From assembly GCA_963768055.1 (NCBI GenBank), contig CAVYGN010000001.1, positions 1,472,001-1,536,000 of the forward strand: 64,000 nt of DNA, in the 5' to 3' direction. Origin of the DNA: an uncultured Spirochaetota bacterium. GTDB taxonomy: Bacteria > Spirochaetota > Brevinematia > Brevinematales > JAOACQ01. A program made the translations under genes and the position numbers. The notes under the pieces are model-generated. The model ran no database searches and had not been told where the DNA came from. It worked only from the letters and a program-made list of their open reading frames with translations. This document shows, piece after piece, positions 3,224-60,774 of this stretch (its first letter is position 1; each line of letters opens with the position of its first letter).

Positions 3224-3254
3224 GGAACCACAGATTCCACAGATTAGCACAGAT
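3224..3254 (+). repeat. Orphan CACAGAT tandem array, a half-end of the GxxExxY cassette family at 38124-38701
   Basis: GGAACCACAGATTCCACAGATTAGCACAGAT closely matches the reverse complement of 38629-38662 (TGAAACCACAGATTCCACAGATAATCACAGAT). Confidence 0.75.
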
Positions 3255-3371
3255 CTATAGTATTATAAATATCAGTTAAACTAATTGACAGAGCTAGAGA
3301 TTATCATATCTTCTATAAGTCTGGACTGGGCCTTCGAAAGCGTCAAGCCAATTAATAAAAGGGGGCAGTTC

Positions 3372-5732
3372 ATGAAGAAAACTATTGTAAAATTATTTAC
3401 CGCCGTGCTGTTTTTTTTTATTCCGCTTATGTTGCCGGCCATGGATCTTTTCGAAGCCGCTACAAAGGGAAATACCGGTTTTATATCATCATATATTAAA
3501 AGCGGCGGCAATATAAATATAACTGATAATAGCACTGAAACGGCTTTAATGCTGGCCGCCCGTTTCGGCCATGCTGACTGTGTAAAACTGCTGATTGAAG
3601 CCAAAGCCGATATCAATGCTAAGGATAATGGCGACTGCACTGCTTTGATGTACGCTGCGGATTCAGGAAATGCTGAAAGTGTAAAGCTTTTGATCGACGC
3701 TAAAGTCAAGAATGTCAATGCAAAATCTAGGTATGGTAAGACGGCCTTAATGTGTGCTGCCCAATCCGGCCTCACTGACTGTGTAAAACTGTTGATTGAA
3801 GCCAGAGCCACTGTCAATGCTAAGGATAATGGCGACTGGACTGCTTTGATGTATGCTTCCTTGGGGACTAACTATATAGGAAATGCGGACGCGGTTAAAG
3901 CGTTAATCTCGGCGGGGGCCAATGTCAATGCTAAGAATAATGCCGGCCAGATTGCTTTGATGTGTGCAGCTGGGTTAGGGAATGCGGACGCGGTTAAAGC
4001 GTTAATCTCGGCGGGGGCCAATGTCAATGCTAAGGATAATGGCTACCGGACTGCTTTGATGAGTGCCGCGGATTCAGGAAATGCCGATTGTATAAAGCTT
4101 TTGATCGACGCTAAAGTCAAGAATGTCAATGCAAAGGATGAAATAGGTTTTACGGCTTTAATGTATGCTGCGGATTCAGGAAATTCTGAAATTGTAAAAC
4201 TGCTGATCGACGTTAATGCCGATGTCAATGCAAAGGATCTTGATGATGACACAGCATTGATGTATGCAATTACTTCAAAAAAAAATCCCGCCGAATGCGT
4301 TAAACTGCTTCTTGCCGCGGGGGCCGATTTCAAATGCAAGAACAGCTTATACAACCGCTTAAATTTTTATGGAACGGCTCTGGAGATAGCTGAACAGATG
4401 GTTGGTGAATCATCATATGAAAATAATCCCGGCATCGATATAGTCAGACTCCTTATCGGCGCCGGGGAAGTTGAGAATATATATAATGCAGCAATAATCG
4501 GCGATACGAACTTCATTAAATCATATATAAAAAAGGGAAAGAATATAAATGATAAATACTATTTCAAAGGTGTTCTTACTACAGCTTTTTCATCCCCGTT
4601 AATCGTAGCGGCTTCACTCGGCCGGGCGGATTGCGTGAGACTTTTTATCGATGCAGGGGCAAATTTGAATGAAACTAATTTGAATGGTACGGCTTTATTT
4701 CATGCCGTCTTATATAATCATCCCGACTGCTTAAAACTTTTGATCGGCGCCGAAGCAGACCCTTATATTGGCCCGGATCCACTTTCTGCAGCTTCTGAAA
4801 ATGGCTATTCGGACTGTATGAAGCTTCTGATAAATCCCGCCAGTATAAAAAAATTCGGCACTGACGCCCTGTGCGGTGCGCGCAATGTCGATTGCCTCAA
4901 ACTGCTCGTCGATGCGGGGGCCGATGTTAATGGCGTAAACAAAGACGGATTGAGGCCTTTAGTTTATTTTTCAACCAGTTCGTTAAGCGCAGATTCGAGA
5001 ATTTTGAATTACATCATCAAATCGGGAGCCGATGTCAAAAAATACGGAGGAGAGGCCCTGACAAGGGTCTTCAGTTATAATTTATCTAAGCACCCAGGGC
5101 CGAGTTCAATTCATATCGAAACTCCCGGGCAGCGCTATGAAGAAAAAGAAATGACGGAAAAAGAAGCTGAAGAATTTGCTGAAAAACATCCGCTGTGGAA
5201 TACTCGTGAAGTTATTGACGATGACAGATTTTCCGCACCTATGGTAAAACTCCTGTTAATTGCAGGCGCCGATCCGAATTATCGGGATAAATCGGGCAAA
5301 TGCGTTATGGATCTTGCCGAGGATCATATCGCGGCATACTGCATGAGCTTATTAGCCGGCGCGGGCGCTAAAAAAGCCCCTTCGTCAATTTATTTTAGCG
5401 GCGGCATAACATTGCCGGTTAAAAATATTAATAATTCGGAAGATATTTTTCTTGCAGGCATAATCAACGATACCGGCTTTATCGACTCTTACATAAAGAG
5501 CGGCGGAGATGTAAATGCTCTTGATTTTTATGGAGATACGGCCCTGATCCGGGCTTCCGAATATAACAACAAAGACTGCATCAAGAAGCTGCTAAATGCC
5601 GGGGCCGATCCCAACATAGCGAATCAATTGGCAAAGACTGCCCTGCTTTATGCCCAGCAAAACAAGGATGATGAAACGGTTTCATTATTAAAAAATGCCG
5701 GGGCTACAAATACTATACTGCCTGGTTTTTAG
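3372..5732 (+). CDS. Exported ankyrin-repeat protein
   Basis: ATG at 3372 after a purine-rich tract gives MKK plus a hydrophobic signal peptide; many 33-aa TALMxAA...ADVNAKD repeats. Confidence 0.9.
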   Translation: MKKTIVKLFTAVLFFFIPLMLPAMDLFEAATKGNTGFISSYIKSGGNINITDNSTETALMLAARFGHADCVKLLIEAKADINAKDNGDCTALMYAADSGNAESVKLLIDAKVKNVNAKSRYGKTALMCAAQSGLTDCVKLLIEARATVNAKDNGDWTALMYASLGTNYIGNADAVKALISAGANVNAKNNAGQIALMCAAGLGNADAVKALISAGANVNAKDNGYRTALMSAADSGNADCIKLLIDAKVKNVNAKDEIGFTALMYAADSGNSEIVKLLIDVNADVNAKDLDDDTALMYAITSKKNPAECVKLLLAAGADFKCKNSLYNRLNFYGTALEIAEQMVGESSYENNPGIDIVRLLIGAGEVENIYNAAIIGDTNFIKSYIKKGKNINDKYYFKGVLTTAFSSPLIVAASLGRADCVRLFIDAGANLNETNLNGTALFHAVLYNHPDCLKLLIGAEADPYIGPDPLSAASENGYSDCMKLLINPASIKKFGTDALCGARNVDCLKLLVDAGADVNGVNKDGLRPLVYFSTSSLSADSRILNYIIKSGADVKKYGGEALTRVFSYNLSKHPGPSSIHIETPGQRYEEKEMTEKEAEEFAEKHPLWNTREVIDDDRFSAPMVKLLLIAGADPNYRDKSGKCVMDLAEDHIAAYCMSLLAGAGAKKAPSSIYFSGGITLPVKNINNSEDIFLAGIINDTGFIDSYIKSGGDVNALDFYGDTALIRASEYNNKDCIKKLLNAGADPNIANQLAKTALLYAQQNKDDETVSLLKNAGATNTILPGF

Positions 5733-5757
5733 GACCGCCTCCGGGTCGGGAAGGTTG

Positions 5758-7404
5758 ATGAAAAAAGCTGTTTTTGGAACCGCCCTTATTATAATATTTT
5801 TTGTTTTTTCTATCGCTGACTTTGCAAGATCGGATGATTTATTTTTAAAATTGGGCAGGATCGCTTCAGCCGGGGAGATGCAGCCCGAAGACACTAACAT
5901 AATAAATGCATTTGTCGCGAAATACGGGGGTAATTATGTCTATACGAATTTTTACACGAACAGTGATGGTTCGGCGGCTTCAAACCTATTTTGCATTATA
6001 GACCTGTTTAGCTTTTTTCCTTCTTATAAAACCTTCGATATCCTTCCGGAAGTTCAATACCTCGATAGTATCGGCGCAAAAAGGAAATGGGATATCGATT
6101 ACTTTTTTGTAAACGCATGCCAGCGGGGTTACCTGGATTTGATCGAATATTATTTGAAGAAAGGGGCGAATATAAATTTTGTATATACTAACGGCAACTG
6201 GACAGGTTTTCAGGTTGCGGTGCAGTCATATAATTACAATCCGGAAGTCATAACTTATCTTTACAGGCATGGGGCGGATATTCATGTTTTGCCGAAAGAT
6301 AAATATACGTTTGACATGATTCTAGATAAAGTCTACAGGCATGGGGATTACACTAACCTGATCTATCTTATAAAACATGGTTACCGGTCGCAATCGATCG
6401 AAGATGACATTACCGGAACGCATTGGTATACAAATTTATACTCGAAGACCGAGCTCGACGATATCTTGAAATATATTCATGCAAGCAATAAAGAGATCAG
6501 ATTCAGCGACATTAAGAATGAAGCGATGCGCGAATTGTCCGCCATTGGGGCATGGTTTTCCGATCAATTCCCTAAAATACTGAATATAATCAGAATAATC
6601 GTATTTGTTCTCACCTTAGCGTCACTTGTATATTTTGTCGGGTTAAACCTAATAAACATGATTTTAACCGGCTATTTCAGGAAAAAGGATATTTGCGATT
6701 ACGTTATTAAGGGCGATAAAAAGCGGGTATTGAAATGCCTGGGCAGGGGAGCTGATGTAAATGCAGAAAATAAACTTGGCTATACTCCTTTATCTTTAGC
6801 CGCATATAAGGGGGATAGCGGGATATTGAAGATATTGATAAATTCGGGGGCAAAGGTAAATAAAAAAACCGGATTCGACATTGATGCTCTCATGGGCAAA
6901 GCATTCGCATGCTATACTGCCACGGTCTGGACATTGATCGAATCCGGAAACGACAATTTCGAATCGATAAGCGACTATGAGGCCTATCGATGCATGAAAT
7001 TTACAAGCCGGGGAAAGGCGGAAGGCGTGACGGCATTGATGACAGCTTCTTATGCGGGTATTTTCCGCGATAATTATGAAGTCATGAAAGAAATGCTCAA
7101 TGCAGGGGCCGATCCGGACATTCGCGATGCGGAAGGCTGCTCCGCTTTGATGTTCGCCTGCCTTTACCGGCATGTGAAACAGGTAAGATTATTGATTGAA
7201 AAGGGCGCCGATGTCAATGCAAAGAGCTTTAAAAAATTTACGCCTTTGATCGTCGCATCCGTTCATGGCTTCGCTGAAATTGTCGGGCTTTTACTTGAAG
7301 CGGGGGCGGACATAAACACCAAAACAGACGAAGGCATGACAGCCGCAGATTTTGCTAGAAAGAACAATCATAAAAATGTTTTAGATATTTTAGAAAAAAA
7401 ATAA
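5758..7404 (+). CDS. Membrane-anchored ankyrin-repeat protein
   Basis: ATG at 5758 (MKKAVFG..., N-terminal hydrophobic segment); ANK repeats on both sides of a central TM helix (IIRIIVFVLTLASLVYFVGLNLI). Confidence 0.85.
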   Translation: MKKAVFGTALIIIFFVFSIADFARSDDLFLKLGRIASAGEMQPEDTNIINAFVAKYGGNYVYTNFYTNSDGSAASNLFCIIDLFSFFPSYKTFDILPEVQYLDSIGAKRKWDIDYFFVNACQRGYLDLIEYYLKKGANINFVYTNGNWTGFQVAVQSYNYNPEVITYLYRHGADIHVLPKDKYTFDMILDKVYRHGDYTNLIYLIKHGYRSQSIEDDITGTHWYTNLYSKTELDDILKYIHASNKEIRFSDIKNEAMRELSAIGAWFSDQFPKILNIIRIIVFVLTLASLVYFVGLNLINMILTGYFRKKDICDYVIKGDKKRVLKCLGRGADVNAENKLGYTPLSLAAYKGDSGILKILINSGAKVNKKTGFDIDALMGKAFACYTATVWTLIESGNDNFESISDYEAYRCMKFTSRGKAEGVTALMTASYAGIFRDNYEVMKEMLNAGADPDIRDAEGCSALMFACLYRHVKQVRLLIEKGADVNAKSFKKFTPLIVASVHGFAEIVGLLLEAGADINTKTDEGMTAADFARKNNHKNVLDILEKK

Positions 7405-10374: not shown

Positions 10375-11337
10375 TTATACTGCGATCTTATAGAAAACGC
10401 CTCTTTCCCCCGGACTATTTACAACCTCTTCTTTGACAACTTTATCATATGTCAATATGTCGAGGTATTTTAATATCTCATCTTCTCCTATTGAAAGGAC
10501 AGCGGACAAATCTTCCCGCGTCGACGGTCTTCTTTTAAGCGTATCGATTATAGCATTTTCAATATCGTTTCTGTAAGCTTTCACTTCCGCCCTGTTTTTG
10601 AATCTTTTTATTATCTCGACATTATTAAATTCTAATTTAGCCTTAACGGTTTCAAGTACCTCGCCGGCGGCCGGTTTCACCCACTCTTCAGCTCCCGGCC
10701 TGTCAAGTGTATTAAGCTGGACCTTGTCAGGGTTAATTTTCAGGATAGCTTCATGTAATTTCCCTATATTATAATCATCGGTATTGATTCCGTCAATAAT
10801 AAAAACTTCAAGCCATAGTTTTTTAAGAGGGCTGGATTTCTTAAACTCTTTCGAAAACTCGGAAATTCCTTCGATAACGTCACTAATTTTGATAGCGGGA
10901 TGCGGCCTGTCGATTTTTATATAGGCCTCTTCAGAGGCCGCATCCAGGGATGGAAGAACTAAATCCGCGCAGATGATCTCATCCCTTACTTCTTTATTGT
11001 TTAAAAGACTTGAATTTGTAATAACGGCAATTTTTATTAATGGAAAATCCTGTTTAATCGACTTAAGCATAAAGCCCAGACCTGAATGCAGGGTAGGTTC
11101 TCCGGATCCTGAGAAGGTTATAAAATCCGGGGCCGGATTTTTTTCAATGAAATTTTTTATTTCTGCCAGGATATCTTTAGTCGGATAATATTCGGACCTT
11201 TCGGCTATCAATTTCATACTTTTCCCGCATTCACAATAAACACAATTGAAATTGCAAACCTTGTGGGGCAGAATATCGATTCCGAGGGATATACCGAGCC
11301 TTCTTGAAGGAACCGGACCGTAAACATATTTATACAT
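10375..11337 (-). CDS. Radical SAM protein (COG0731/Tyw1-like Fe-S oxidoreductase) with probable C-terminal winged HTH
   Basis: YGPVPSRRLGISLGID, CNFNCVYC (CxxxCxxC), GSGEPTL; overlaps the upstream gene by 8 bp. Confidence 0.88.
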   Translation of the reverse strand: MYKYVYGPVPSRRLGISLGIDILPHKVCNFNCVYCECGKSMKLIAERSEYYPTKDILAEIKNFIEKNPAPDFITFSGSGEPTLHSGLGFMLKSIKQDFPLIKIAVITNSSLLNNKEVRDEIICADLVLPSLDAASEEAYIKIDRPHPAIKISDVIEGISEFSKEFKKSSPLKKLWLEVFIIDGINTDDYNIGKLHEAILKINPDKVQLNTLDRPGAEEWVKPAAGEVLETVKAKLEFNNVEIIKRFKNRAEVKAYRNDIENAIIDTLKRRPSTREDLSAVLSIGEDEILKYLDILTYDKVVKEEVVNSPGERGVFYKIAV

Positions 11338-13585
11338 ATTTTAACATTACCCTGTTATTGATAAGATCGGATATTGCTTTAATGCCTGTAAAGGTCATAT
11401 TTTTCCGAAGTTCGTTGGCAATCTTATTCAGGTATTGCCTTACTCCCTGTACGCCCCCCCCGACAGCAGCAATCATAACCGGCCTTCCGATCATTACACA
11501 ATTTGCACCAAGGGCTAAACCCTTGAGTACATCGCTTCCGCTTCTAATCCCTCCATCGAGGATAATAAAGGCATCGTCTCCAACAGTATTTTTTATCTCC
11601 GGAAGTGCGTCGATCGGGGCTATTAGATTATCATTTACCCGCCCGCCATGATTTGAAACTATCAAGGCCTTAACCCCGGCTTTTAATGCAGATTCTGCAT
11701 CAGCCGGCGATAAAACCCCCTTCAATACAAAGGGCACTTTTGTGAATTCTACAAGTTCTTTTAATTCGCCGTATGTTTTCGTGCTTGTATTCTGACTTTT
11801 CTGTTCCATAGTCATAAAAGAAGCGGCATCAATATCCATCCCAACCGCAACAGCGCCGGCTTTCACAGCAGCTTCAATCCTCTCCATTATAAGCCTGTTA
11901 TCATAGCGCGGCTTGAATATGGGAACAGCCATACCGAAGTTTTCCAGAATGACCCTTATTCCCAATTTGTATTTTACCGGAGTCGCTCCATCGCCAAGAA
12001 AACCTATCACTCCGGCCTGATTAGCTCCTTTTACGATAGCCCTTGCAAGGGAAAGCTCCCCTATGGCGCCTCCCAGGTTGGTAATTGCCCCGGTTATCGG
12101 TGCGGGAACGATAGGCAAAGACATCGGCAAACCGAATAATTCTATGCTTGTATCAATAATTTTCGCTTCATTAATATAACTGGGAACCAGTTCTATTTTC
12201 CTCAAGCGCTTTACCGCGTTGATAAAAGCGTTCCCGGTTCCTGTACCTCCGACTCCAGGCATCATCCCCCGGCATCTGAAACCGTCGCAGTCGGGGCAAA
12301 CATAGCACTTGTTGTTGAACCTTGCGCGGGCAATTTCACTTATCTCCGCATCGGAAATCAGCTGATCGTCATCTTCTATGGTTTCGACTTTTATCCTTCT
12401 GACCGCTTTATGGGATGCAAGTAGTGCTTCCTGGTAAGTCGGAGCCGCAACAATAATATGACCGTATTTATCAAGATTGTTTTGAGGGGATCTTACTTTG
12501 TCTCCCGGTTTTCCATCGAAAAAAATATCCCTTACATTTTCAATTTGCTTTGCTTCCTCAAGACCTCGAATTTCCCGTATAAACCCTGGAGCCGGAATAA
12601 TCGCCCTTTCGATCGATACCCAGTTTTTAATTGGTTTTATGTCCTCATGAGGAAATCCGAGGGATATCAGGACCATATTTTTCATCAGGTCGATGCCCGA
12701 TGAATAAGGATATGTATATGACGACATAAATCCGCCGGAAAGCCTGGCGGCAATTTCACCTATATAGCAGGAGCCTGCAGAAATCTTAATATCGCCCTTA
12801 GCGGCGCCGTTCGTTATTCCCAGCGCCCTGATGCCGTTTTTAAATGTTTCCACGGCAAAACCAGTTAATTCTCCTGAAAGATTGGACGGCATTATATGGC
12901 CGGTTTCAACAAAATATGGATCGTATTCGATAATCCTGTCGGCTATACCGGTGATGGCAACCTTGCCGTTATAAACTAAAGCGTCAATACTGAGTTCAGG
13001 GGAATCTATATATTGTTCAATGATAACTTTTCCTGAACCTGAATAACGGAGAGAAAGATCGAAGCCTTCTTTTAAATCGTCCAGATTGTTAATTCTTCTA
13101 ACGCCCCTGGCTCCCATATTCTTTTGCGGTTTAATTACACAATCGATTCCAAGTCTTTCTAATGCTTCGACGGCTTTTTGAAAGGAATCTACGAGTTCGA
13201 AATCAGGGACAGGCACTTTTGCCGCCCTGAGCGCCAGCCTCATCAAATATTTATCTGTCGCTCTCAAAGCGGTTTCCGGATCTATTCCAGGCAGGCCTAA
13301 TTTCTTTGCGCATACCGCAACCGTATATGATGCGTCGGTCCCAACTGTCAGCACCCCGTCAATCCTGAGTTTTTCCCTGCTGAAATTTTCCATCAGGAGG
13401 CTGGTCATTTCAGCATCGAGGGTGCTTGAGTTTATATAATAATCCCCTATTCCTACGCCCGGTGCTTCAGGATTTTTATCAACGATTACGGTTTTAAGCC
13501 CCAATTCTTTTGCCGATTTAATTACGGGAATTTGAAGTAATCCTGCTCCGATAACAGCGAGGGTTTTACCGGATAGTTCGCCCAT
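11330..13585 (-). CDS. Fusion of an ATP-grasp ligase and an FMN-dependent alpha-hydroxy-acid dehydrogenase
   Basis: N-terminal ~400 aa: GAGLLQ, DKYLMR, VIKP...GARGV, IEQYI, GEIAARLSG. C-terminal: CxxCxxCx4C, APITG, LKG, VSNHGGR, DGGIRSG, IGRP. Confidence 0.85.
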   Translation of the reverse strand: MGELSGKTLAVIGAGLLQIPVIKSAKELGLKTVIVDKNPEAPGVGIGDYYINSSTLDAEMTSLLMENFSREKLRIDGVLTVGTDASYTVAVCAKKLGLPGIDPETALRATDKYLMRLALRAAKVPVPDFELVDSFQKAVEALERLGIDCVIKPQKNMGARGVRRINNLDDLKEGFDLSLRYSGSGKVIIEQYIDSPELSIDALVYNGKVAITGIADRIIEYDPYFVETGHIMPSNLSGELTGFAVETFKNGIRALGITNGAAKGDIKISAGSCYIGEIAARLSGGFMSSYTYPYSSGIDLMKNMVLISLGFPHEDIKPIKNWVSIERAIIPAPGFIREIRGLEEAKQIENVRDIFFDGKPGDKVRSPQNNLDKYGHIIVAAPTYQEALLASHKAVRRIKVETIEDDDQLISDAEISEIARARFNNKCYVCPDCDGFRCRGMMPGVGGTGTGNAFINAVKRLRKIELVPSYINEAKIIDTSIELFGLPMSLPIVPAPITGAITNLGGAIGELSLARAIVKGANQAGVIGFLGDGATPVKYKLGIRVILENFGMAVPIFKPRYDNRLIMERIEAAVKAGAVAVGMDIDAASFMTMEQKSQNTSTKTYGELKELVEFTKVPFVLKGVLSPADAESALKAGVKALIVSNHGGRVNDNLIAPIDALPEIKNTVGDDAFIILDGGIRSGSDVLKGLALGANCVMIGRPVMIAAVGGGVQGVRQYLNKIANELRKNMTFTGIKAISDLINNRVMLKYV

Positions 13586-36428: not shown

Positions 36429-37130
36429 ATGTTGAATAAAATTTTGAAAATTTCCGCCTTATGCGCTGTCTTCCCGGCAATCCTCTCTTTTGTTTCTTGC
36501 CCTAGCAATCCGGGGTCTAATAATAATACAAATTCAAATTCAAGCGCTCCTACCACCACCATCCTTGACGATAATTTTACCCGGCCCAATCAATCCGGAC
36601 TCGGAGGAGGGTGGGTCTTAACAACCGGAACGGCATCTATAAATAACAACCTTGCCTTATTGACGGGAACATCCGGTTCTTCAATGGCCATTGTTACGAC
36701 CAATATGGCTTTCACAAGCACATATTTTAAAATTACCGCGAATTACAGCATGGATCCGGGAAGCGGGTTTGTTCAGAATTTATATATATCGGGTTTAAGC
36801 GGCAACAATTATACAGTTTGGGACACCGGAGGGATAATCGTATTGCTTAAAAACAATCCAACTATAAATCTTGCAGTTTTGACCTATATTTTCAACAGCT
36901 CGCACCAGTATCAATTGACAGTCGAGAATAACTCCGGGAATTTTACGCTTACTATGTACGATAAAACGGTAGCAACTACCGTGTATAGGACAGGTTCCGA
37001 TTCAAGCCCCTTTACAAGCTTTGGCAGTTTTGCATTGGATGGCGGCGGATATGTCAGTTCCGTCTCTAAAAACGCATACGTAAGCGAAATTAAATTGAAT
37101 ACAGGTAAAATTATCGTTATCGCTTTATGA
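36429..37130 (+). CDS. Putative lipoprotein with S/T/N-rich beta-sandwich (lectin-like?) domain
   Basis: Signal ending LSFVS-C, N/S-rich tether, 'DDNFTRPN...LGGGW'. Confidence 0.7.
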   Translation: MLNKILKISALCAVFPAILSFVSCPSNPGSNNNTNSNSSAPTTTILDDNFTRPNQSGLGGGWVLTTGTASINNNLALLTGTSGSSMAIVTTNMAFTSTYFKITANYSMDPGSGFVQNLYISGLSGNNYTVWDTGGIIVLLKNNPTINLAVLTYIFNSSHQYQLTVENNSGNFTLTMYDKTVATTVYRTGSDSSPFTSFGSFALDGGGYVSSVSKNAYVSEIKLNTGKIIVIAL

Positions 37131-37361
37131 GGGAGCAATAAATATAAAAGAGGGATCAAATATTCAACATCTGCCTGGTCGCAGCTTAACAATGTCCCCG
37201 GAATTTACGCCCTTGTTAAAACTGCGGGCCTTAAAAACATCCGGAAAAACGCGACAGGCCTGCCTTGGCTGAAGATTAAAAAATAGATGTTTTTGTTTGT
37301 CCGGCATATGAACAGCGGGTTACCGGATGCCCGGGAGGAACAGGTTTGCCGCCCTTGATTG

Positions 37362-38096
37362 TTACTTTAAATTATGCGCCAGCAGGAATTCTCCGTCCGA
37401 AAGGATGTCCTCCGGCCTGCCTGTCCTTATGATAGTGTGATCCTCCGAAAGCACGACGGCAGTTTCGAAGATGCCTTCGATATATTCGTATTCATGGGTC
37501 GCGCATATTATGGTCTTTCCCGCCCTGTTAAGGTCTATTATAAGCCCTTTCATAAACCTTTTAATTCCCGGATCAAGTCCGTCGAGGGGTTCGTCAAGGG
37601 TAAGAACCTCAGGGTTCAGAGAGAGAACTGCGGCTATCGCAACCTTCTTTTTCTCCCCCTCGCTAAGGTGGTAGGGTTCCCTGTGCTTTAAGTGCTCTAT
37701 CCCCAGCATGCAAAGGCAATCCCTGACCCTGCTGTTCACTTCCTCTTCCGTAAAACGCATCTGCCTGGGCCCGAAAGCTAACTCTTCGTAAACGTTCTGG
37801 CAGAACAGCTGGGCGTCGGAATTTTGAAATACGAAACCTATGCTCTTATGGAATTTTTTTGAGTAGGCCCTGTCGCTTAATTTTTTCGAATCGATGATAT
37901 CACCGTTGAAAAAATAATCTCCCGAATCAGGAAAAACTATGCCGTTGATCATTTTCAGCAGGGTGGATTTACCGCTACCGTTAGGCCCGATTACGGCATA
38001 AGATCCGCCTTCAGCTACGCTCAGGTCCAGATCATTAAGCGCGGGGCAATTCCTGTAGCTGTAATTAACGTTTTTGAACTCGATTATATATTTCAT
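37362..38096 (-). CDS. cbiO: Ni/Co ECF transporter ATPase (NikO/CbiO)
   Basis: GPNGSGKST, FVFQNSDAQLF, LSEGEKKK, LDEP. Confidence 0.88.
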   Translation of the reverse strand: MKYIIEFKNVNYSYRNCPALNDLDLSVAEGGSYAVIGPNGSGKSTLLKMINGIVFPDSGDYFFNGDIIDSKKLSDRAYSKKFHKSIGFVFQNSDAQLFCQNVYEELAFGPRQMRFTEEEVNSRVRDCLCMLGIEHLKHREPYHLSEGEKKKVAIAAVLSLNPEVLTLDEPLDGLDPGIKRFMKGLIIDLNRAGKTIICATHEYEYIEGIFETAVVLSEDHTIIRTGRPEDILSDGEFLLAHNLK

Positions 38097-38123
38097 TCAA
38101 ACCTTCCGGGGGCCATTATTAAA

Positions 38124-38701
38124 TAACGGAACTGTCTACTTGGAAAACCTCAAATTGAAACCACCGATTTCACAGATTAAAATGATTATCTGTGAAATCT
38201 ACAAAAATTGTATTAGTTTGCAAACCTTTTGAATTTTAATGAGCTTTCGCCAAAGTTAATTAATAAACCGATTTTCTTTTTGGAATTCTTCAAACTATTT
38301 ATAATTTGAGCTTCATCTGTTTTTGTAAGGCATCGCTCCGCTTTTATCTCCACTATAACTTCATGAAAAATTATAAAATCTGGAATGTAATACTTTCTCA
38401 ATTCAGAGTTTTTATAAAAAACTTTTAGCAATGGTTGCGCTTCATATGGTATTTTCCTCATTCTGAATTCTATTTCAAGACATTCCTGATAAACAGCTTC
38501 CAGAAAACCAGATCCCATTTCTTTATGGACTTCCATTACCGCGCCAATGATCTCATATGTTCGTGGATCGTTGCTTGTTTTTTTGACCATGTTTATAATT
38601 ATAACAAGATTTCACTGATAATTCAAAATAATCTGTGATTATCTGTGGAATCTGTGGTTTCAACCCGCGTTAAACGGTTTGTAAAGTAGATAATTCCGTT
38701 A
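38124..38701. mobile_element. Repeat-bounded GxxExxY cassette inserted between cbiQ and cbiO
   Basis: Outer imperfect IR TAACGGAACTGTCTACTTGGAAAACC vs rc TAACGGAATTATCTACTTTACAAACC; inner IR arrays TGAAACCAC.GATT.CACAGAT on both sides; single AT-rich gene inside. Confidence 0.65.
38213..38590 (-). CDS. GxxExxY protein (PD-(D/E)XK nuclease fold)
   Basis: IIGAVMEVHKEMGSGFLEAVYQECL; PDF...VEIK; GLLINFG. Confidence 0.92.
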   Translation of the reverse strand: MVKKTSNDPRTYEIIGAVMEVHKEMGSGFLEAVYQECLEIEFRMRKIPYEAQPLLKVFYKNSELRKYYIPDFIIFHEVIVEIKAERCLTKTDEAQIINSLKNSKKKIGLLINFGESSLKFKRFAN

Positions 38702-39502
38702 AATAAAAAAAAACGTGGATATCAACAGGCAGTCCAGTCCGATAAAAATAAAATCTCCGGTTTTTAAGCGGAATTTCCATGGTGGAAGATAACTGCCGTT
38801 AAAACCCCTGCATTCCATCGCGTAATATGTCAATTCAGCCATTTCTTTGGATTTCAGGAACAACCCGCCCATCAGGTTTGAAAGCGACTGGTGTTTTTTG
38901 TCGTTTTTCCCGACAGACCTGAGCCGGAGCGCATAAAGCATATTTATTGAAAATTCCCCTAGAATAAAAATGTATTTTATAGTAATATCGAACACTAATA
39001 TGAAAACATCGGGGAGCTTTATAACTTTCATCGAATGAGTGATGTGGCTCCATTTAGTTGAATTTGCCAGGATATTTACAGCGGTAAGACTTCCGGTGAT
39101 TTTTAAAAACAGTATAGCGCAGTTGGAAAAATTTCCGGCGATCGCCGACGGAAGAAGGATAAGCGCCGAAAATAATCCGGATGTTAAAATCACGAAAGCC
39201 GTTCTTTTAATATCCTCCAGTTCAAGCATTCCCAGCGCCAGGAGTATATAAGCGTCGGAAAGCAATACGAATTGAATGGAGAAAGATAACGACAGAAATA
39301 TTATGAACATAAAAGTAAAAATGAATTTTATGGTCGCATTGAGCCTGTAAATTATCCCGTTTTCCGGTTTCCCCGCCCAGCGGATCCCCGAAAGCATGCC
39401 GAGAACATTGAGTATGCTTTTATCGATAAACGCGTCGCTGTCTCTCTGAAGCCCGAATTCATCTTTCTTCATCAGCCAGTCAGTCACTTTTCCTCCGGAC
39501 AT
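38699..39502 (-). CDS. cbiQ: Ni/Co ECF transporter transmembrane T component (NikQ/CbiQ)
   Basis: Multiple TM helices; ALRLR and AMECRGF motifs. Confidence 0.85.
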   Translation of the reverse strand: MSGGKVTDWLMKKDEFGLQRDSDAFIDKSILNVLGMLSGIRWAGKPENGIIYRLNATIKFIFTFMFIIFLSLSFSIQFVLLSDAYILLALGMLELEDIKRTAFVILTSGLFSALILLPSAIAGNFSNCAILFLKITGSLTAVNILANSTKWSHITHSMKVIKLPDVFILVFDITIKYIFILGEFSINMLYALRLRSVGKNDKKHQSLSNLMGGLFLKSKEMAELTYYAMECRGFNGSYLPPWKFRLKTGDFIFIGLDCLLISTFFFI

Positions 39503-40464
39503 TTCCTGCCGATAAAACCCGAGATCGCCTTGAAGATAATCAGAATGGCCGCAGTTCCGGCGATTGCGGAAATAACATACCCTGCTATCGTATTTTTAAG
39601 ATTAAAAATATTGTAATCCGTTAAGGGCGCCCTAAATTTAAATCCGCTCAGCATTCCTTCCGGGATATAACCCGTCAGTCTTTTAAGTTCATCCATAGGC
39701 CATTCGCCCCATGCCGTTCCTGAAAATAAAACCCCCAGTGGCGTTAAAACAGCCAGGACTCCCAAAAGCAGGTATAGGGGGCTGAAAATTTTGTTATCGC
39801 CGTCATGGATAATTTCCGGCGATACGCGGCGTATAAAGGCGATGACCCCGGCCGTCACCGTACCCTCGATAAAACCTGCTATTAGGTGGGCGATAAGCAT
39901 TGCGGGTATTGAGACACCAAGAGGATACGGACAGTAGAGCGGATGACCTGCCGGATCGAAAAATAACAAAGGCTGAATGCCGAACTCTACCGCGGTAAAG
40001 AAAGCTGCCAGGTTGATGGAAATGTACCCCGCGATAAAAGCCCCGGCGTATCCGTCAGGATCCCTCTTTATGAATTTCTTTATTAAATTGTAAATGAAAT
40101 AACCGGCAAAAGGTATGACAAAAGCCATATTGAAACAATTGGCGCCGAAAGCCAGAATACCGCCGTCGCCGAATAAAAGCGCCTGGATAAGAAGTGCCGT
40201 AGATACCGCTATTACCGCAGCGTACGGGCCCAGCAGAATTGCTACAAGGGTTGCACCGACGGCGTGCGCCGTAGTCCCGCCCGGAACAGGCACGTTGAAC
40301 ATCATAATGAGAAAGGAAAACGCCGCGGAGATGCCCAGGAGGGGCACCCTCTTCTCGGTCAGTTCTTTTTTTACCTTTTTTACCGACACGGTCCAAATCG
40401 GGATCATTATTGCGCCCATTACCGCGCATGTCTGGGGACTCAGATAATTGTCGGGAATATGCAT
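39484..40464 (-). CDS. cbiM: Ni/Co ECF substrate component, fused NikMN/CbiM type
   Basis: N-terminal MHIPD metal-binding motif, GGTTAH, QALLFGDGG; C-terminal AWGEW...APLTDY (PDGLE-like). Confidence 0.9.
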   Translation of the reverse strand: MHIPDNYLSPQTCAVMGAIMIPIWTVSVKKVKKELTEKRVPLLGISAAFSFLIMMFNVPVPGGTTAHAVGATLVAILLGPYAAVIAVSTALLIQALLFGDGGILAFGANCFNMAFVIPFAGYFIYNLIKKFIKRDPDGYAGAFIAGYISINLAAFFTAVEFGIQPLLFFDPAGHPLYCPYPLGVSIPAMLIAHLIAGFIEGTVTAGVIAFIRRVSPEIIHDGDNKIFSPLYLLLGVLAVLTPLGVLFSGTAWGEWPMDELKRLTGYIPEGMLSGFKFRAPLTDYNIFNLKNTIAGYVISAIAGTAAILIIFKAISGFIGRKCPEEK

Positions 40465-40593
40465 TTGCCGTCCTTAAAAACCAAGAATTATAGATCAGAT
40501 TATAAAAATAGACAAAATTTGGGGCTTAAAAACGGGGACTGATGTGGTTCACCGCAGAGGCGCGGTGAAGTTCCCCTTCCAATCTTCAATAAT

Positions 40594-40622
40594 TTTACAA
40601 ATACAATGTTTGTATATATAAT
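40594..40622 (+). promoter_or_regulatory. TA promoter with a palindromic operator in the spacer
   Basis: TTTACA-N17-TATAAT; ATACAA-tgt-TTGTAT at 40601-40615. Confidence 0.6.
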
Positions 40623-40649
40623 CATATATAATTATATTGGAGAAACAAT

Positions 40650-40895
40650 ATGAATACTAGTACTGTTAATATCTCTTTTCAAAAAGAATTACTTAGGCAG
40701 ATTGATAATATAGCTAAGGCTGAAGCCAGAACAAGATCGGAATTGATTCGTGAAGCTGCAAGAATGTATATAGAAAGGAAGAAAAGGCTGGATAAAATGT
40801 TTGCCTTCGGAGACTTCCAGCTGAAGAATAGTAATATTAAAGAAGACCAGCTGGATAATGAAATTCATAAATATAGAAAGTTGAAAAGAAAATGA
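40650..40895 (+). CDS. Ribbon-helix-helix (CopG-like) antitoxin
   Basis: VNISF...IDNIAK...RSELIREA; ATGA overlap with the PIN gene. Confidence 0.82.
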   Translation: MNTSTVNISFQKELLRQIDNIAKAEARTRSELIREAARMYIERKKRLDKMFAFGDFQLKNSNIKEDQLDNEIHKYRKLKRK

Positions 40896-41296
40896 AATCG
40901 GTCAAGGTTGTCCTGGACACCAATGTTATTATATCCGCTATAATATTCGGCGGTAAACCGAGACAACTGATTTATATGATTCACGAAATGAAATTTGAGG
41001 CTTATTTTTCAAAAGATATAATCGACGAGGTATTGGAGATTCTTGAAATGAAATTTGATTATCCAAAAAATAAGCTGATTACAGTTGAGAATGAGCTTAC
41101 ATCAATGGGGGAATTGGTGGAGCCAGGCGTTAAATTGTCAGTTATAAAAGAAGACCCCGATGATGATAAAATAATTGAATGTGCTGTTGCGGCAGAAGCT
41201 GATTATATTGTTTCCGGCGACAAGCATCTTCTTTCTTTTGAAAAATATGGTAATATTGAAATTTTGAAAACCGCTGACTTTTTGGAATTATTTTAG
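40892..41296 (+). CDS. PIN-domain toxin (PIN_3 type)
   Basis: VVLDTNVIISA, DPDDDKIIECA, IVSGDKHLL. Confidence 0.9.
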   Translation: MKSVKVVLDTNVIISAIIFGGKPRQLIYMIHEMKFEAYFSKDIIDEVLEILEMKFDYPKNKLITVENELTSMGELVEPGVKLSVIKEDPDDDKIIECAVAAEADYIVSGDKHLLSFEKYGNIEILKTADFLELF

Positions 41297-51768: not shown

Positions 51769-52158
51769 TTAAATATTTTTATATAATGAAAATTCTATAT
51801 AAGTATTAATTAATGAAAAATGTTTATCCAGAGAGAATAATTCAAGATCATTATCGATAACATTTTGCAAAATTATTAAATCCGGAATACCTACTTTATT
51901 GATCCCGTTTTTCAAATTTGCAGCCTGGTAATTAATCAAACCTTCCCACCTGATTATTAATGGAATATTTCTAACCGAATTAAGCAGCTCAATCAGTTTA
52001 TTCTGCCTTTTATGTTTGAGAAATGGGACTAATTCAGTTAAGATTAAATTATTTATACATATCAGATTTCTATCTATAAGCTGATTTAATTTTTCAACTT
52101 CCGGGTTCCCTCCAAAATATTCTATCCAGACCGATGAATCGATCAATATATTCCTCAT
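51769..52158 (-). CDS. vapC: VapC-like PIN toxin
   Basis: ILIDSSVWIEY, ELV, DLIIL, SLDKHF. Confidence 0.88.
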   Translation of the reverse strand: MRNILIDSSVWIEYFGGNPEVEKLNQLIDRNLICINNLILTELVPFLKHKRQNKLIELLNSVRNIPLIIRWEGLINYQAANLKNGINKVGIPDLIILQNVIDNDLELFSLDKHFSLINTYIEFSLYKNI

Positions 52159-54793: not shown

Positions 54794-56710
54794 TTATTGC
54801 TTCGCTCCTGCTTTTTTCAAAAGAATAAAGATTTTATCGCTTCCAGCCAATTTTAAAGCCGTCCTGCCTTTTACATCCATGGCTTTTAAATCGGCCCCGG
54901 CATCGATCAGTACCCTTACCATGTCAGTTTGCCCATTTTCAGCAGCAACCATCAAGGCGGTATCCCCGTCCTCATCCAGCACCTGGTCAATGTTTCCCTT
55001 GTAATTTTTAAAAAACATTTCATCGTCGTTGGCCGCCGCATCGAACATGGTCTCAAGCAAGGCCTTTTCAGCATTTAGAGTTTCCTTGGACTCCATTTTA
55101 GCACCGGCATCGTTTAATATCTTAACCGCGACCAATCCCCTTTTTATAGTCGCCCATGTTAATACTGTCTCTCCTGATTTATTCACAGCGTTAATATCGG
55201 CCTTCGCCTCGATCAGCGATTTAATTATATCAGAATGCAAATAGGAGGCCGCGTACATCAAAGCTGTCCAGCCGTTTCTTTCCGCTGCGTTGACATCGGC
55301 TTTAGCCCCTATCAATGACTTGACCGCATCCGATTGTCCGGTGATGACTGCGTACATCAGGGCAGTCATGCCGTATTTACTAACGGCATTAACATCGGCC
55401 TTCGCCTCGATCAACGCTTTGATCCCATCAGCTTGGCCGTTAATAGCTGCGTACATCAAAGCCGTCCTTCCGTCTTTATCCGCGGAGTTGATGTCTCCTT
55501 TATAACTTTTAATAAACTCAACATCACCGTATCTGGCGGCGCTAAGAATGGTCTGTTTGGCCCCTGCGTCTTTTAATAGTTTGGTGATAGCAGAATCTTT
55601 AGCGAACAATAAAGCGGTACTGCCGTATTTATCCAAAGCATTAATATCGGCCCCGCCCTCGATCAATGCTTTAACCGCCTCTCTATGGCCATTCCCGGCT
55701 TCAATCATTAAAGCCGTCAAACCGTCTGAATCCGCTGTGTTAATGTCAGCCTTGGCTATGATCAATGCTTTAACTGTGTCCGTTTTACCATTGATGGCTG
55801 CATACATCAAGGGTGTCCATCCTTCTTTATCCGCCGCGTTGATATCAGCTTTTGCATCTATAAATGCTATAACCGCTTTCGTTTTGCCTTCGCCTGCTGC
55901 TTCCATCAAAGCAGTTACACCGTTTTTACTAGCGGCATTTACATTAGCCTTTGCATCGATAAATACTTTAGCCTCCTTTCCATGCCCGATGATTGACTCA
56001 ATCATCAAGGCCGTCCATCCTTCCTTATCTGCAGAGTCGACATTGGCCTTCGCATCGATCAATATTCTGACAGCATCCATTTGATTGTACAGTGCCGCCC
56101 ACATTAAAGCCGTCCACCCTTCATTATCAGCCGCATTGACGTCTGCTTTTGCTTCGATCAATGCTTTAAGCGCATCGATTCGGCCATTGTCCGCCGCGTA
56201 CATCAAGGCGGTCTTGCCATCCTTATCAGCGGAGTTGACGTCGCTTTGATGACTTTTAATAAACGAAACATCTCCGTATTTAGCGGCACTAAGCAGTGTC
56301 TGTTTCGCACCGGCTTCTTTTAAAAGTTTTGCAATAACAGGATTATCCGCAAATAATAAAGCTGTACTGCCGTATTTATCTGCAGCGTTGATATCGGCTC
56401 CTGCCTCGATCAATGCTTTAACGGCCGTCTTTTGTCCAATAAGTGCAGCATGCATCAAAGCCGTCAAGCCTTCTTTATCTGCAGCATTGATATCTGCCTT
56501 CGATTTTATCAATACCTTAACCGCGGCCTCATGGTTATACATTGCAGCGTACATTAAAGCCGTCCACCCGTCCTTATCCGCAGCGCTGATATTGCCCTTA
56601 TAACTTTTTATAAAAGAAACATCACCTTTTCTAGCTGCATCGAACAAATCCTCATCAGCAAAAGTGAAGGCGGGAATTACCAGCATGATAAATATCAGCC
56701 ATTTCTTCAT
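54794..56710 (-). CDS. Exported ankyrin-repeat protein
   Basis: GGAGG RBS, MKKWLIF signal peptide, many ADINAADKxGxTALM repeats. Confidence 0.92.
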   Translation of the reverse strand: MKKWLIFIMLVIPAFTFADEDLFDAARKGDVSFIKSYKGNISAADKDGWTALMYAAMYNHEAAVKVLIKSKADINAADKEGLTALMHAALIGQKTAVKALIEAGADINAADKYGSTALLFADNPVIAKLLKEAGAKQTLLSAAKYGDVSFIKSHQSDVNSADKDGKTALMYAADNGRIDALKALIEAKADVNAADNEGWTALMWAALYNQMDAVRILIDAKANVDSADKEGWTALMIESIIGHGKEAKVFIDAKANVNAASKNGVTALMEAAGEGKTKAVIAFIDAKADINAADKEGWTPLMYAAINGKTDTVKALIIAKADINTADSDGLTALMIEAGNGHREAVKALIEGGADINALDKYGSTALLFAKDSAITKLLKDAGAKQTILSAARYGDVEFIKSYKGDINSADKDGRTALMYAAINGQADGIKALIEAKADVNAVSKYGMTALMYAVITGQSDAVKSLIGAKADVNAAERNGWTALMYAASYLHSDIIKSLIEAKADINAVNKSGETVLTWATIKRGLVAVKILNDAGAKMESKETLNAEKALLETMFDAAANDDEMFFKNYKGNIDQVLDEDGDTALMVAAENGQTDMVRVLIDAGADLKAMDVKGRTALKLAGSDKIFILLKKAGAKQ

Positions 56711-56860
56711 AATATGCCTCCTTACAATTCGATGTTTTATTATATATATCCCATTAAAAACATGCATGTTTTTGTTATTATTCAGTATTTAAACTAATAT
56801 TTATTACCTATTTTAATACCCTTATTAAACATACTGGCGCACGTTTTTTGAATCGTAATC

Positions 56861-60254: not shown

Positions 60255-60774
60255 TCACCGCAAAGGCGCCAAGGACGCAAAGGGCTGTCCTGAGGCAGCG
60301 AAGGAGACAGAGTACGCAAAGAATTATAATTGATTTACAATTCTTTTTATCCCGTCTTTCAATAAAATTGAATTAAAGTTTATCAATAAACCCAATTTTA
60401 ATCCAGTTAATTTTAAATATGTTAATAATTGCGCTTCATGTATCAATTCGATTTGATTAACTGATTTTAATTCAATAATTACTTTTTTTTCAACTACTAA
60501 ATCCAATCTATAAACACAGTCTAACAAAATTCCTTTATAATTTACTGGTAATGATTTTTGTCTTTCAAACTTTAAATTTAATTTATTTAATTCATAACAT
60601 AAGCATTCTTCATAAGCTGATTCTAAAAGACCCGGCCCAATTCTTTTATGAACTTCAATCGCTGCCCCAATAATTTTATTGGATAATTCATCTTCAATTT
60701 TTTTCATTTTATTAATTACTTTGCATTTCTTTGCGTCCTTCGATATCTTTGCGACCTTTGCGACTTTGCGTTGA
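60255..60774. mobile_element. Repeat-bounded GxxExxY cassette 2
   Basis: Left (CGCAAAG)n array starting TCACCGCAAAG; right (CTTTGCG)n array ending CTTTGCGTTGA; very AT-rich gene inside. Confidence 0.65.
60324..60707 (-). CDS. GxxExxY protein (PD-(D/E)XK nuclease fold)
   Basis: IIGAAIEVHKRIGPGLLESAYEECL; LDL...IELK; AQLLTYL; GLLINFN. Confidence 0.93.
   Translation of the reverse strand: MKKIEDELSNKIIGAAIEVHKRIGPGLLESAYEECLCYELNKLNLKFERQKSLPVNYKGILLDCVYRLDLVVEKKVIIELKSVNQIELIHEAQLLTYLKLTGLKLGLLINFNSILLKDGIKRIVNQL

Follow-up and report, generated by a model that had tools for sequence, protein, structure and literature searches.

A GxxExxY nuclease gene bracketed by inverted arrays of short repeats at the cbiQ–cbiO junction of an uncultured Spirochaetota bacterium suggests a compact selfish DNA element

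The cbiMQO region of an uncultured Spirochaetota bacterium was analysed within a stretch of 64,000 nucleotides of its genome (contig CAVYGN010000001.1, hereafter the window), where a small gene of the GxxExxY family, enclosed by short inverted repeats, lies between cbiQ and cbiO, the genes for the T component and the ATPase of an energy-coupling factor (ECF) transporter. The four genes cbiM, cbiQ, GxxExxY and cbiO are all on the minus strand (Table 1). The product of the GxxExxY gene matches PF13366 (PDDEXK_3; E 4.1e-37, 127.5 bits against a cutoff of 22) and TIGR04256 (GxxExxY; 135.1 bits against a cutoff of 35), and the GC fraction is 0.28–0.36 over the cassette versus 0.40–0.52 in the surroundings. 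These matches and the GC dip bear out the original prediction, made from the DNA letters alone, of an AT-rich GxxExxY gene at this place. It had also called the cassette transposase-free, and no transposase domain was found among the 49 open reading frames (ORFs) of the window scanned against Pfam. Both neighbouring genes are intact, with CbiQ covering PF02361 profile positions 4–210 of 216 up to its C-terminus and the CbiO match beginning at profile position 1, directly preceded at the DNA level by a GGAAGG ribosome-binding site 5' of the cbiO ATG. The ATPase also gives TIGR04521 and TIGR01166 matches, both below their cutoffs.

An inverted-repeat search around the gene revealed three collinear inverted pairs, designated outer, middle and inner. 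The middle pair (38155–38177 / 38641–38663; 23 nt, 91%) and the inner pair (38185–38200 / 38607–38622; 16 nt, 94%) belong to the two arms of a core element spanning 38155–38663. In the right arm the CACAGAT units occupy positions 38631–38637, 38641–38647 and 38650–38656 of the minus strand; the left arm holds one exact and one mismatched unit together with a perfect 12-bp hairpin (38166–38177 / 38188–38199). CACAGAT occurs ten times in the window against an expectation of 3.55, a number reached by 1 of 100 shuffles, and five of these sites flank the gene while three make up a solitary array elsewhere. A 21-nt two-unit pattern, allowing up to three mismatches, has three matches in the window (0.00 expected), namely both arms and the solitary site (3224–3244). 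The inner arrays of 9–10-bp units with a CACAGAT core that had been described from the letters are thus confirmed.

The window contains two further places with such repeats. The second cassette carries a gene whose product also matches PF13366 (E 9.9e-46) and is 40% identical to the first GxxExxY protein, within an inverted repeat of 28 nt (86%). Its core is CGCAAAG, of which 7 of the 11 window sites flank the gene, three on the plus strand at its left and four on the minus strand at its right; CGCAAAG is not enriched over the window as a whole (11 sites versus 8.7 expected), and only this clustering is noteworthy. The solitary triple CACAGAT array lies 6 nt 3' of the stop codon of an AMP-binding enzyme gene, with neither a GxxExxY gene nor a partner arm near it, and is possibly the remnant of an element. 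Its likeness to the upstream region of the cassette runs slightly past the array itself.

Table 1. Positions of the features at the cbiQ–cbiO junction, elsewhere in the window and, in the last row, at other loci
Feature	Position	Strand	Remarks
cbiO-type ECF transporter ATPase	37362..38096	-	downstream host gene; PF00005 E 1.2e-28
Left 8-bp direct repeat TTAAATAA	38119..38126	.	identical to 38699-38706; candidate target-site duplication
Left outer terminal inverted repeat, 23 bp	38127..38149	+	18/23 matches to reverse complement of 38676-38698
Left arm of core element	38155..38200	.	3' of gene on coding strand; starts with terminus TTGAAAC
GxxExxY / PDDEXK_3 gene	38213..38590	-	125 aa; PF13366 and TIGR04256 matches
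Promoter-like site (TTGAAT, 17 nt, TATAAT, with TG)	38598..38626	-	10/12 matches; ends 7 nt before ATG
Right arm of core element	38607..38663	.	5' of gene; three CACAGAT units, then terminus GTTTCAA
Right outer terminal inverted repeat, 23 bp	38676..38698	-	partner of 38127-38149
Right 8-bp direct repeat TTAAATAA	38699..38706	.	holds cbiQ stop codon 38699-38701
cbiQ (ECF T component)	38699..39502	-	upstream host gene; PF02361 E 2.6e-22
cbiM	39484-40464	-	upstream of cbiQ
Second cassette	60255..60774	-	GxxExxY gene 60324-60707, 127 aa; CGCAAAG arrays
Solo triple CACAGAT array	3224..3254	+	units 3229-3254; GGAAC-type terminus as in cassette
GIY-YIG ORFs in GxxExxY genes	L043:13442-13714, L044:3412-3666, L019:1399-1653		

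Comparison with other genomes revealed that the finding is wider than this single locus. The sample comprised 78 public loci from many phyla (best identity 67%) plus the window, with 87 GxxExxY ORFs detected by the family hidden Markov model; the loci represent the best 80 of 584 matches to the window protein (45–67% identical). A motif-blind score, counting 7-mers shared in inverted orientation between the two flanks, reached at least 4 for 35 of 82 GxxExxY genes; of the 703 ORFs taken from these loci as controls, 11 did (Mann-Whitney p 1e-23), so the enrichment that the original prediction expected in the flanks of the family was indeed found. In the five closest relatives the 7-mer that the upstream flank most shares with the reverse complement of the downstream one is again CACAGAT, and in other loci the core is CGCAGAT, CACGAAT, CACGGAT, CACGAAG, CACGGAA, CGCAAAG or CACTAAT, giving a generic 7-bp form C-R-C-N-R-A-D. 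The core is read forward upstream of the gene and reverse-complemented downstream, with 0.36–0.72 forward cores per 25 nt within 100 nt upstream and 0.32–0.54 reverse cores per 25 nt within 75 nt downstream, against a background of 0.065, an enrichment of about tenfold.

Over 1.15 Mb, 252 arrays were counted versus 2 after block shuffling, and 147 of them lie no more than 200 nt from a GxxExxY gene, a zone that makes up 6% of the sequence. Exactly three units are present in 178 of the 252 arrays; of 446 steps from unit to unit, 301 are of 9 nt and 109 of 10 nt, and 88% of the arrays have a C directly before their first unit. Even a Bacteroides member with 35% identity has three units on each side. 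Chance as the origin of the arrays is rejected on the window shuffles, the two-unit pattern, the motif-blind score and the 252 versus 2 arrays. The array architecture is conserved across phyla, and the data support that the inner arrays belong to the gene family and not just to the window locus. Mirrored repeats that accompany a family in many phyla suggest, at the level of sequence, a compact selfish DNA element, and the window cassette is, on balance, probably one copy of such a widespread element, made of a stand-alone GxxExxY nuclease gene bracketed by its own arrays. In one locus (L021, 4636–8903) eight minus-strand triple arrays are found among unrelated small genes, 169–2024 bp apart, with four of the seven gaps measuring 261–298 bp.

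The two arms of one element are conserved unevenly. Their cores match at 344 of 357 positions (96%) and their spacers at 61 of 108 (56%; shuffled expectation 0.31), and 17 of 21 elements repeat the spacing pattern of one arm on the other. Simple arm-to-arm pairing is insufficient to account for this stronger conservation of the cores, since pairing would constrain the spacers equally. The comparison bears on a rival explanation in which GxxExxY is a resident host gene with cis-acting arrays, serving as operators for autoregulation or as a transcript stem that is processed (e.g. by RNase III) and insulates the gene in host operons, the protein having no role in mobility. In agreement with it, RNA folding predicts base pairing between the 5' and 3' flanks over their length (-144.9 kcal/mol, z -3.6), 71 of 83 upstream neighbours share the strand of the gene versus a background of 0.67, the promoter-like site of Table 1 abuts the arrays, and the position is kept across syntenic genomes. 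Besides the uneven conservation of cores and spacers, which pairing alone would constrain alike, this explanation has to face gene-less doublets (see below) that lie far from any GxxExxY gene and have no target to regulate, near-identical units in unrelated contexts, and the invariance of the catalytic residues, so that we regard it as very improbable.

As for expression, the number of promoter-like sites in the region is not above that of shuffled sequence, and the one at 38598–38626 is a positional lead only. No Shine-Dalgarno sequence was seen 5' of the GxxExxY gene, so its mRNA may be leaderless. Since the gene is co-directional with the operon and no terminator-like site was found on the minus strand of the cassette, cbiO can still be read through. 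An Rfam search over positions 37000–41000 returned nothing relevant.

The association of arrays and protein extends to the type of core. The window gene falls in a clade of six (support of 99 in the Shimodaira-Hasegawa-like approximate likelihood ratio test, SH-aLRT), all of which have CACAGAT. Over the tree the core class changes 18 times against a shuffled mean of 29.1, none of 200 shuffles being as low, and the nearest protein neighbour has the same core in 32 of 74 cases (13.7 expected). The idea that the repeat family tracks the protein phylogeny therefore stands, and it implies that gene and arrays form a single unit of inheritance; the two GxxExxY genes of the window differ in core just as they differ in sequence, CACAGAT in one and CGCAAAG in the other. 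The most likely mechanism, proposed here with moderate confidence in view of this co-inheritance, is one in which the protein would recognise and cut the arrays. A search for residues that would set the specificity was underpowered, with only one supported independent contrast, and gives window residues 8–11, 77 and 107 as leads only.

The protein is equipped for such a role. Its GxxExxY motif (G28-F-L-E31-A-V-Y34) and its nuclease motif (P70-D71...E81-x-K83) are intact, and residues E31, Y34, D71, E81 and K83 are invariant in 60 aligned family sequences. The AlphaFold2 model (predicted local distance difference test, pLDDT, 91.9) was compared with known structures by Foldseek, whose best matches are all PD-(D/E)XK nucleases, among them Cas4 SSO0001, lambda exonuclease and an archaeal Holliday junction resolvase. 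These matches are weak (E 2e-3 or worse, with none at E <= 1e-3; TM 0.4–0.58), and the family profile found no match among PDB sequences. The model and the weak matches together agree with the PD-(D/E)XK fold that had been attributed to GxxExxY proteins. With the predicted fold and invariant catalytic residues the window protein appears nuclease-competent, a point in favour of the element with its own nuclease. The protein matches only PF13366 and no recognised transposase family, as would be found in an autonomous insertion sequence, and it stands alone, with only three longer forms found, two of them apparent read-through fusions.

The family is large (11,462 clusters at 50% identity, E <= 1e-3), and a protein 82% identical to that of the window was found (P0002). 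In a 2012 superfamily survey the entry for PDDEXK_3 gives its function as 'Unknown' (PMC3424549), and none of the GxxExxY papers in the searchable literature, among them PMC8934634, deals with function. Nor was a description of the association of nuclease and arrays found in the searchable literature, although subscription journals and supplements may hold relevant work, and 16-nt strings of the arrays matched no paper there.

The element is found in different surroundings. Between L026 and L029 the sole common sequence is a 495-bp unit (90.5% identity), which ends at the outermost units and is set among unrelated neighbouring genes. The CACAGAT clade is found in at least five contexts, including kdsB-type|pyrG and cusB|cusA, the latter being a further operon split without damage. 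In L017 and L036 the element stands between a sugar dehydrogenase and an epimerase whose genes are 12 nt apart in L034. The element thus sits in tight operon junctions with neither neighbour broken. In 82 of 84 cases the GxxExxY gene is poorer in GC than the locus around it, and several divergent copies may be present in one genome, with two in the window and five within 20 kb in L043. A plasmid search for a pair of occupied and empty sites gave six matches, and for the two that were inspected no empty partner was available. Close metagenomic relatives are mostly on contigs of 0.5–3 kb, as expected if assemblies break at repeated flanks.

Arrays are also found as gene-less convergent doublets, in which three units, a short spacer and three inverted units follow each other. 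Such doublets are often formed by arrays distant from the genes, opposite-strand pairs of which are separated by gaps of no more than 117 nt in 20 of 34 cases. They are present in related loci, and within the window there is one solo half-array only. In L025 (5626–5746 and 9559–9756) doublets are placed head to tail in alternating orientation. Two near-identical GxxExxY copies are found on one contig in L051 (3244 and 10645), one of which has an extra gene-less doublet of ~70 bp inserted precisely where its upstream array has its outer end; as far as sequence can tell, this arrangement suggests that doublets insert beside existing arrays.

The doublets share their geometry with the arms around the gene (spacers of 3–117 nt), and this likeness also fits a free-standing homing endonuclease that would cut gene-less doublets as empty sites, the gene then being copied in by repair from an occupied copy, with the arrays as short homology arms. 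Nested arrangements, such as a CGCAGAT-type element inside a CGCAAAG array pair in L009 and the outer shell of the window cassette, are in line with it, and so are L009 and L019, whose gene middles are almost identical while ends and flanks diverge, as after gene conversion. GIY-YIG ORFs (84–90 aa, PF01541 E 1e-15 to 2e-17) were seen to interrupt GxxExxY genes, and the genes of L043 (Bacteroidota) and of L044 (Scalindua) are broken at the same Pfam profile position (~28–29), within the DNA of the GxxExxY motif. From their position these insertions resemble a homing nuclease that targets GxxExxY genes, and the same split position in two phyla argues that homing-type nucleases are active at these loci. 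Homing leaves unexplained, however, how arrays would arrive at new sites such as operon junctions, and homology arms of ~27 bp are short; we consider it unlikely as the general explanation. One piece of a split GxxExxY gene gives a sub-threshold TnsA-like match (E 0.0016).

The outermost layer of the window cassette deserves separate treatment. The outer inverted pair of the repeat search (38116–38149 / 38676–38709; 34 nt, 76% complementary) can be divided into 23-bp terminal inverted repeats and, outside them, two identical copies of TTAAATAA. For these outermost 8 bp, a direct repeat is a better reading than a stretch of the inverted one. The original prediction of imperfect outer repeats of ~26 bp containing the cbiQ stop codon was correct as to the imperfect inverted repeat, which is shortened here to 23 bp, the stop codon being part of the adjoining direct repeat. 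Identical 8-mers at the spacing of the two copies are found at 7 of 63,412 window positions. The unit bounded by the inverted repeats (38127–38698) is 572 bp long, and once the element and one TTAAATAA copy are removed in silico, 22 nt separate the cbiQ stop from the cbiO ATG.

Mobile insertion cassettes and miniature inverted-repeat transposable elements (MITEs) are transposase-less units bounded by insertion-sequence ends. The shell has their characters, that is, terminal inverted repeats with an 8-bp direct repeat, one passenger gene and no transposase domain in the scanned ORFs. A second rival explanation can be built on this likeness, in which the 572-bp unit was moved in trans by a transposase making 8-bp duplications and the gene with its arrays was cargo. 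The imperfect 23-bp repeats next to a perfect direct repeat are in line with such an event, and so are the compact cbiQ–cbiO junction given back by excision and the lack of a transposase domain among the scanned ORFs of the window; as the ends at the level of the family come without such duplications, the shell moreover looks like a different system. No further copy of the 23-bp ends was found in the 64-kb window or in the 80 loci, however, and no cognate insertion sequence is known. TTAAATAA matches its own reverse complement at 6 of 8 positions, so the inverted repeat could run on into part of the direct one, and an equally good reading of the shell is a pre-existing palindrome into which the element went, cf. 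the nested array types of L009. Arrival by this route appears rather unlikely, although less so than homing; it is compatible with the family-wide explanation, since it concerns only how this copy came to lie between cbiQ and cbiO. The inner arrays differ from the ends of MITEs in that they are not those of an insertion sequence and accompany the gene from phylum to phylum.

In the family, inverted repeats beyond the arrays are uncommon (5 of 81 GxxExxY genes score at least 12, versus 2 of 81 in the best of 10 shuffles), and on these numbers the outer inverted repeat was rejected as a family feature. A second layer of the same element is a less likely reading of the shell than either a palindrome already present or a separate MITE-like vehicle that made an 8-bp duplication. 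Of the two nested layers originally described, both are therefore present in the sequence, the outer one being unusual in the family and probably no layer of the element itself.

The closest known systems to an element with its own nuclease are the repetitive extragenic palindromic (REP) sequences with their REP-associated tyrosine transposases (RAYT), and the REP doublets forming hairpins (REPINs), described in part in PMC8266576, PMC5581495 and PMC8049555. In both cases a single small nuclease-type gene lies between cognate short repeats in inverted orientation, as found here for GxxExxY; gene-less inverted doublets of the same repeats occur in intergenic DNA (for GxxExxY, in related loci); the repeat type goes with the protein clade; there is no target duplication at the ends (for GxxExxY, those at the level of the family); and some copies are kept vertically. 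The differences lie in the enzyme and in the repeats. RAYTs are HUH/Y1 (IS200-like) transposases, whereas the 125-aa GxxExxY protein has a PD-(D/E)XK fold and matches only PF13366. A REP is a single imperfect palindrome, in contrast to arrays of three direct 9–10-bp units, and RAYTs typically have about one copy in a genome where GxxExxY genes have several divergent ones. By analogy, a logic similar to that of REP/RAYT is supported. The original prediction of a compact selfish element with this logic gains from the family-wide arrays, the gene-less doublets, the unrelated contexts and the presence or absence of the element at an operon junction, and loses the outer layer as part of that element.

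Other systems share single features. The homing endonuclease I-Ssp6803I, TnsA of Tn7 and Rpn/YhgA are PD-(D/E)XK enzymes of mobile DNA. They are of the same nuclease superfamily and theirs is the activity that breaks DNA in homing or transposition, but none has a significant sequence match or a close structural match to the GxxExxY protein, which has no partner transposase, intron or extra domain. The ORFs in intervening sequences of 23S rRNA genes are small and belong to a four-helix-bundle family; they too are short and stand alone, with inverted repeats that pair in the transcript and many copies scattered over phyla. Their fold is unrelated, however, and the GxxExxY sites are intergenic operon junctions instead of rRNA genes. 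PDDEXK_2 (Rpn/YhgA, 'putative transposase') is listed in the superfamily table of PMC3424549.

Several points weigh against the proposed element with its own nuclease. In a strict test, requiring the same exact 7-mer chained at 8–12 nt, arrays are present on both sides of 21 of the 87 genes, on one side of 39 and on neither side of 27; a loose test still leaves 9 of 87 without arrays. The left arm in the window is decayed, more so than the right. The loci, chosen as best matches to the window protein, are not a random sample of the family, and the generic core pattern was composed after viewing the data, the score test being motif-blind. Co-inheritance taken alone is insufficient to establish recognition, as common descent also predicts it. 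For a nuclease of 125 aa and a single domain, strand transfer is not an evident activity, and neither a target-site duplication nor a defined cut site was seen at the family-level ends. Finally, the gene is retained in synteny across related genera (L003/L004, L030/L033/L037/L013, L054/L078, L017/L036 and L031/L055), which implies that movement is rare or that many copies have become fixed.

With these points in mind, the working of the element can be pictured as follows. The GxxExxY nuclease would read the 7-bp cores on both arms, pair the arms and cut at or near the outer array boundary. Cutting would mobilise the element and its gene-less derivatives, or would add the gene to doublets that lack it. 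The outer shell might have served for the last hop to the site between cbiQ and cbiO, or the element might have entered a palindrome already there. In a bolder version, which we put forward tentatively and as rather doubtful, GxxExxY would be the sole enzyme of an unrecognised class of minimal mobile elements in many phyla. Each subfamily would read its own 7-bp core in triple 9-bp arrays at both ends, moving gene-bearing units of ~0.5 kb and gene-less doublets of ~60–100 bp by a nuclease route without target duplication.

What can be stated is that a conserved nuclease gene and cognate triple arrays form an element resembling REP/RAYT in layout and distribution. Because a conserved cognate motif adjoins the gene, the function of the family becomes a question for the bench, with a likely substrate at hand for each protein, and the two proteins of the source genome with their two cores provide reciprocal controls. 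Should the arrays prove to be acted on by the proteins, a genome-resident repeat system of the REP/RAYT type would have arisen a second time, independently and with a different nuclease fold. Such action would also account for the often short contigs that carry GxxExxY genes and for operons such as cbiMQO and cusBA being split by a small unrelated gene. Under the sole-enzyme version, a function would be given to a family that counts over 11,000 sequence clusters, together with a natural set of small nucleases of varying array specificity.

Some other features of the surroundings were recorded. The Pfam scan placed Ni_insertion (LarC-like) and AIRC (LarB-like) genes near cbiMQO, and their closeness, given the make-up of lar operons, makes a nickel role of the Cbi transporter plausible. 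A gene for an unusual fusion of ATP-grasp, L-amino-acid-ligase and FMN-dehydrogenase domains occurs in the window (11330–13585) and, in L002 (3893–6148), directly 3' of the GxxExxY element of the closest relative; this co-occurrence is probably a coincidence. Between cbiM and a LarE-like gene there is a ribbon-helix-helix and PIN_3 pair (40650–41296), likely a toxin-antitoxin module, and a further PIN gene is found at 51769–52158. Three large ankyrin-repeat proteins and several partner-switching genes of the STAS, SpoIIE and anti-sigma types are encoded at 3285–7404 and 54794–56767.

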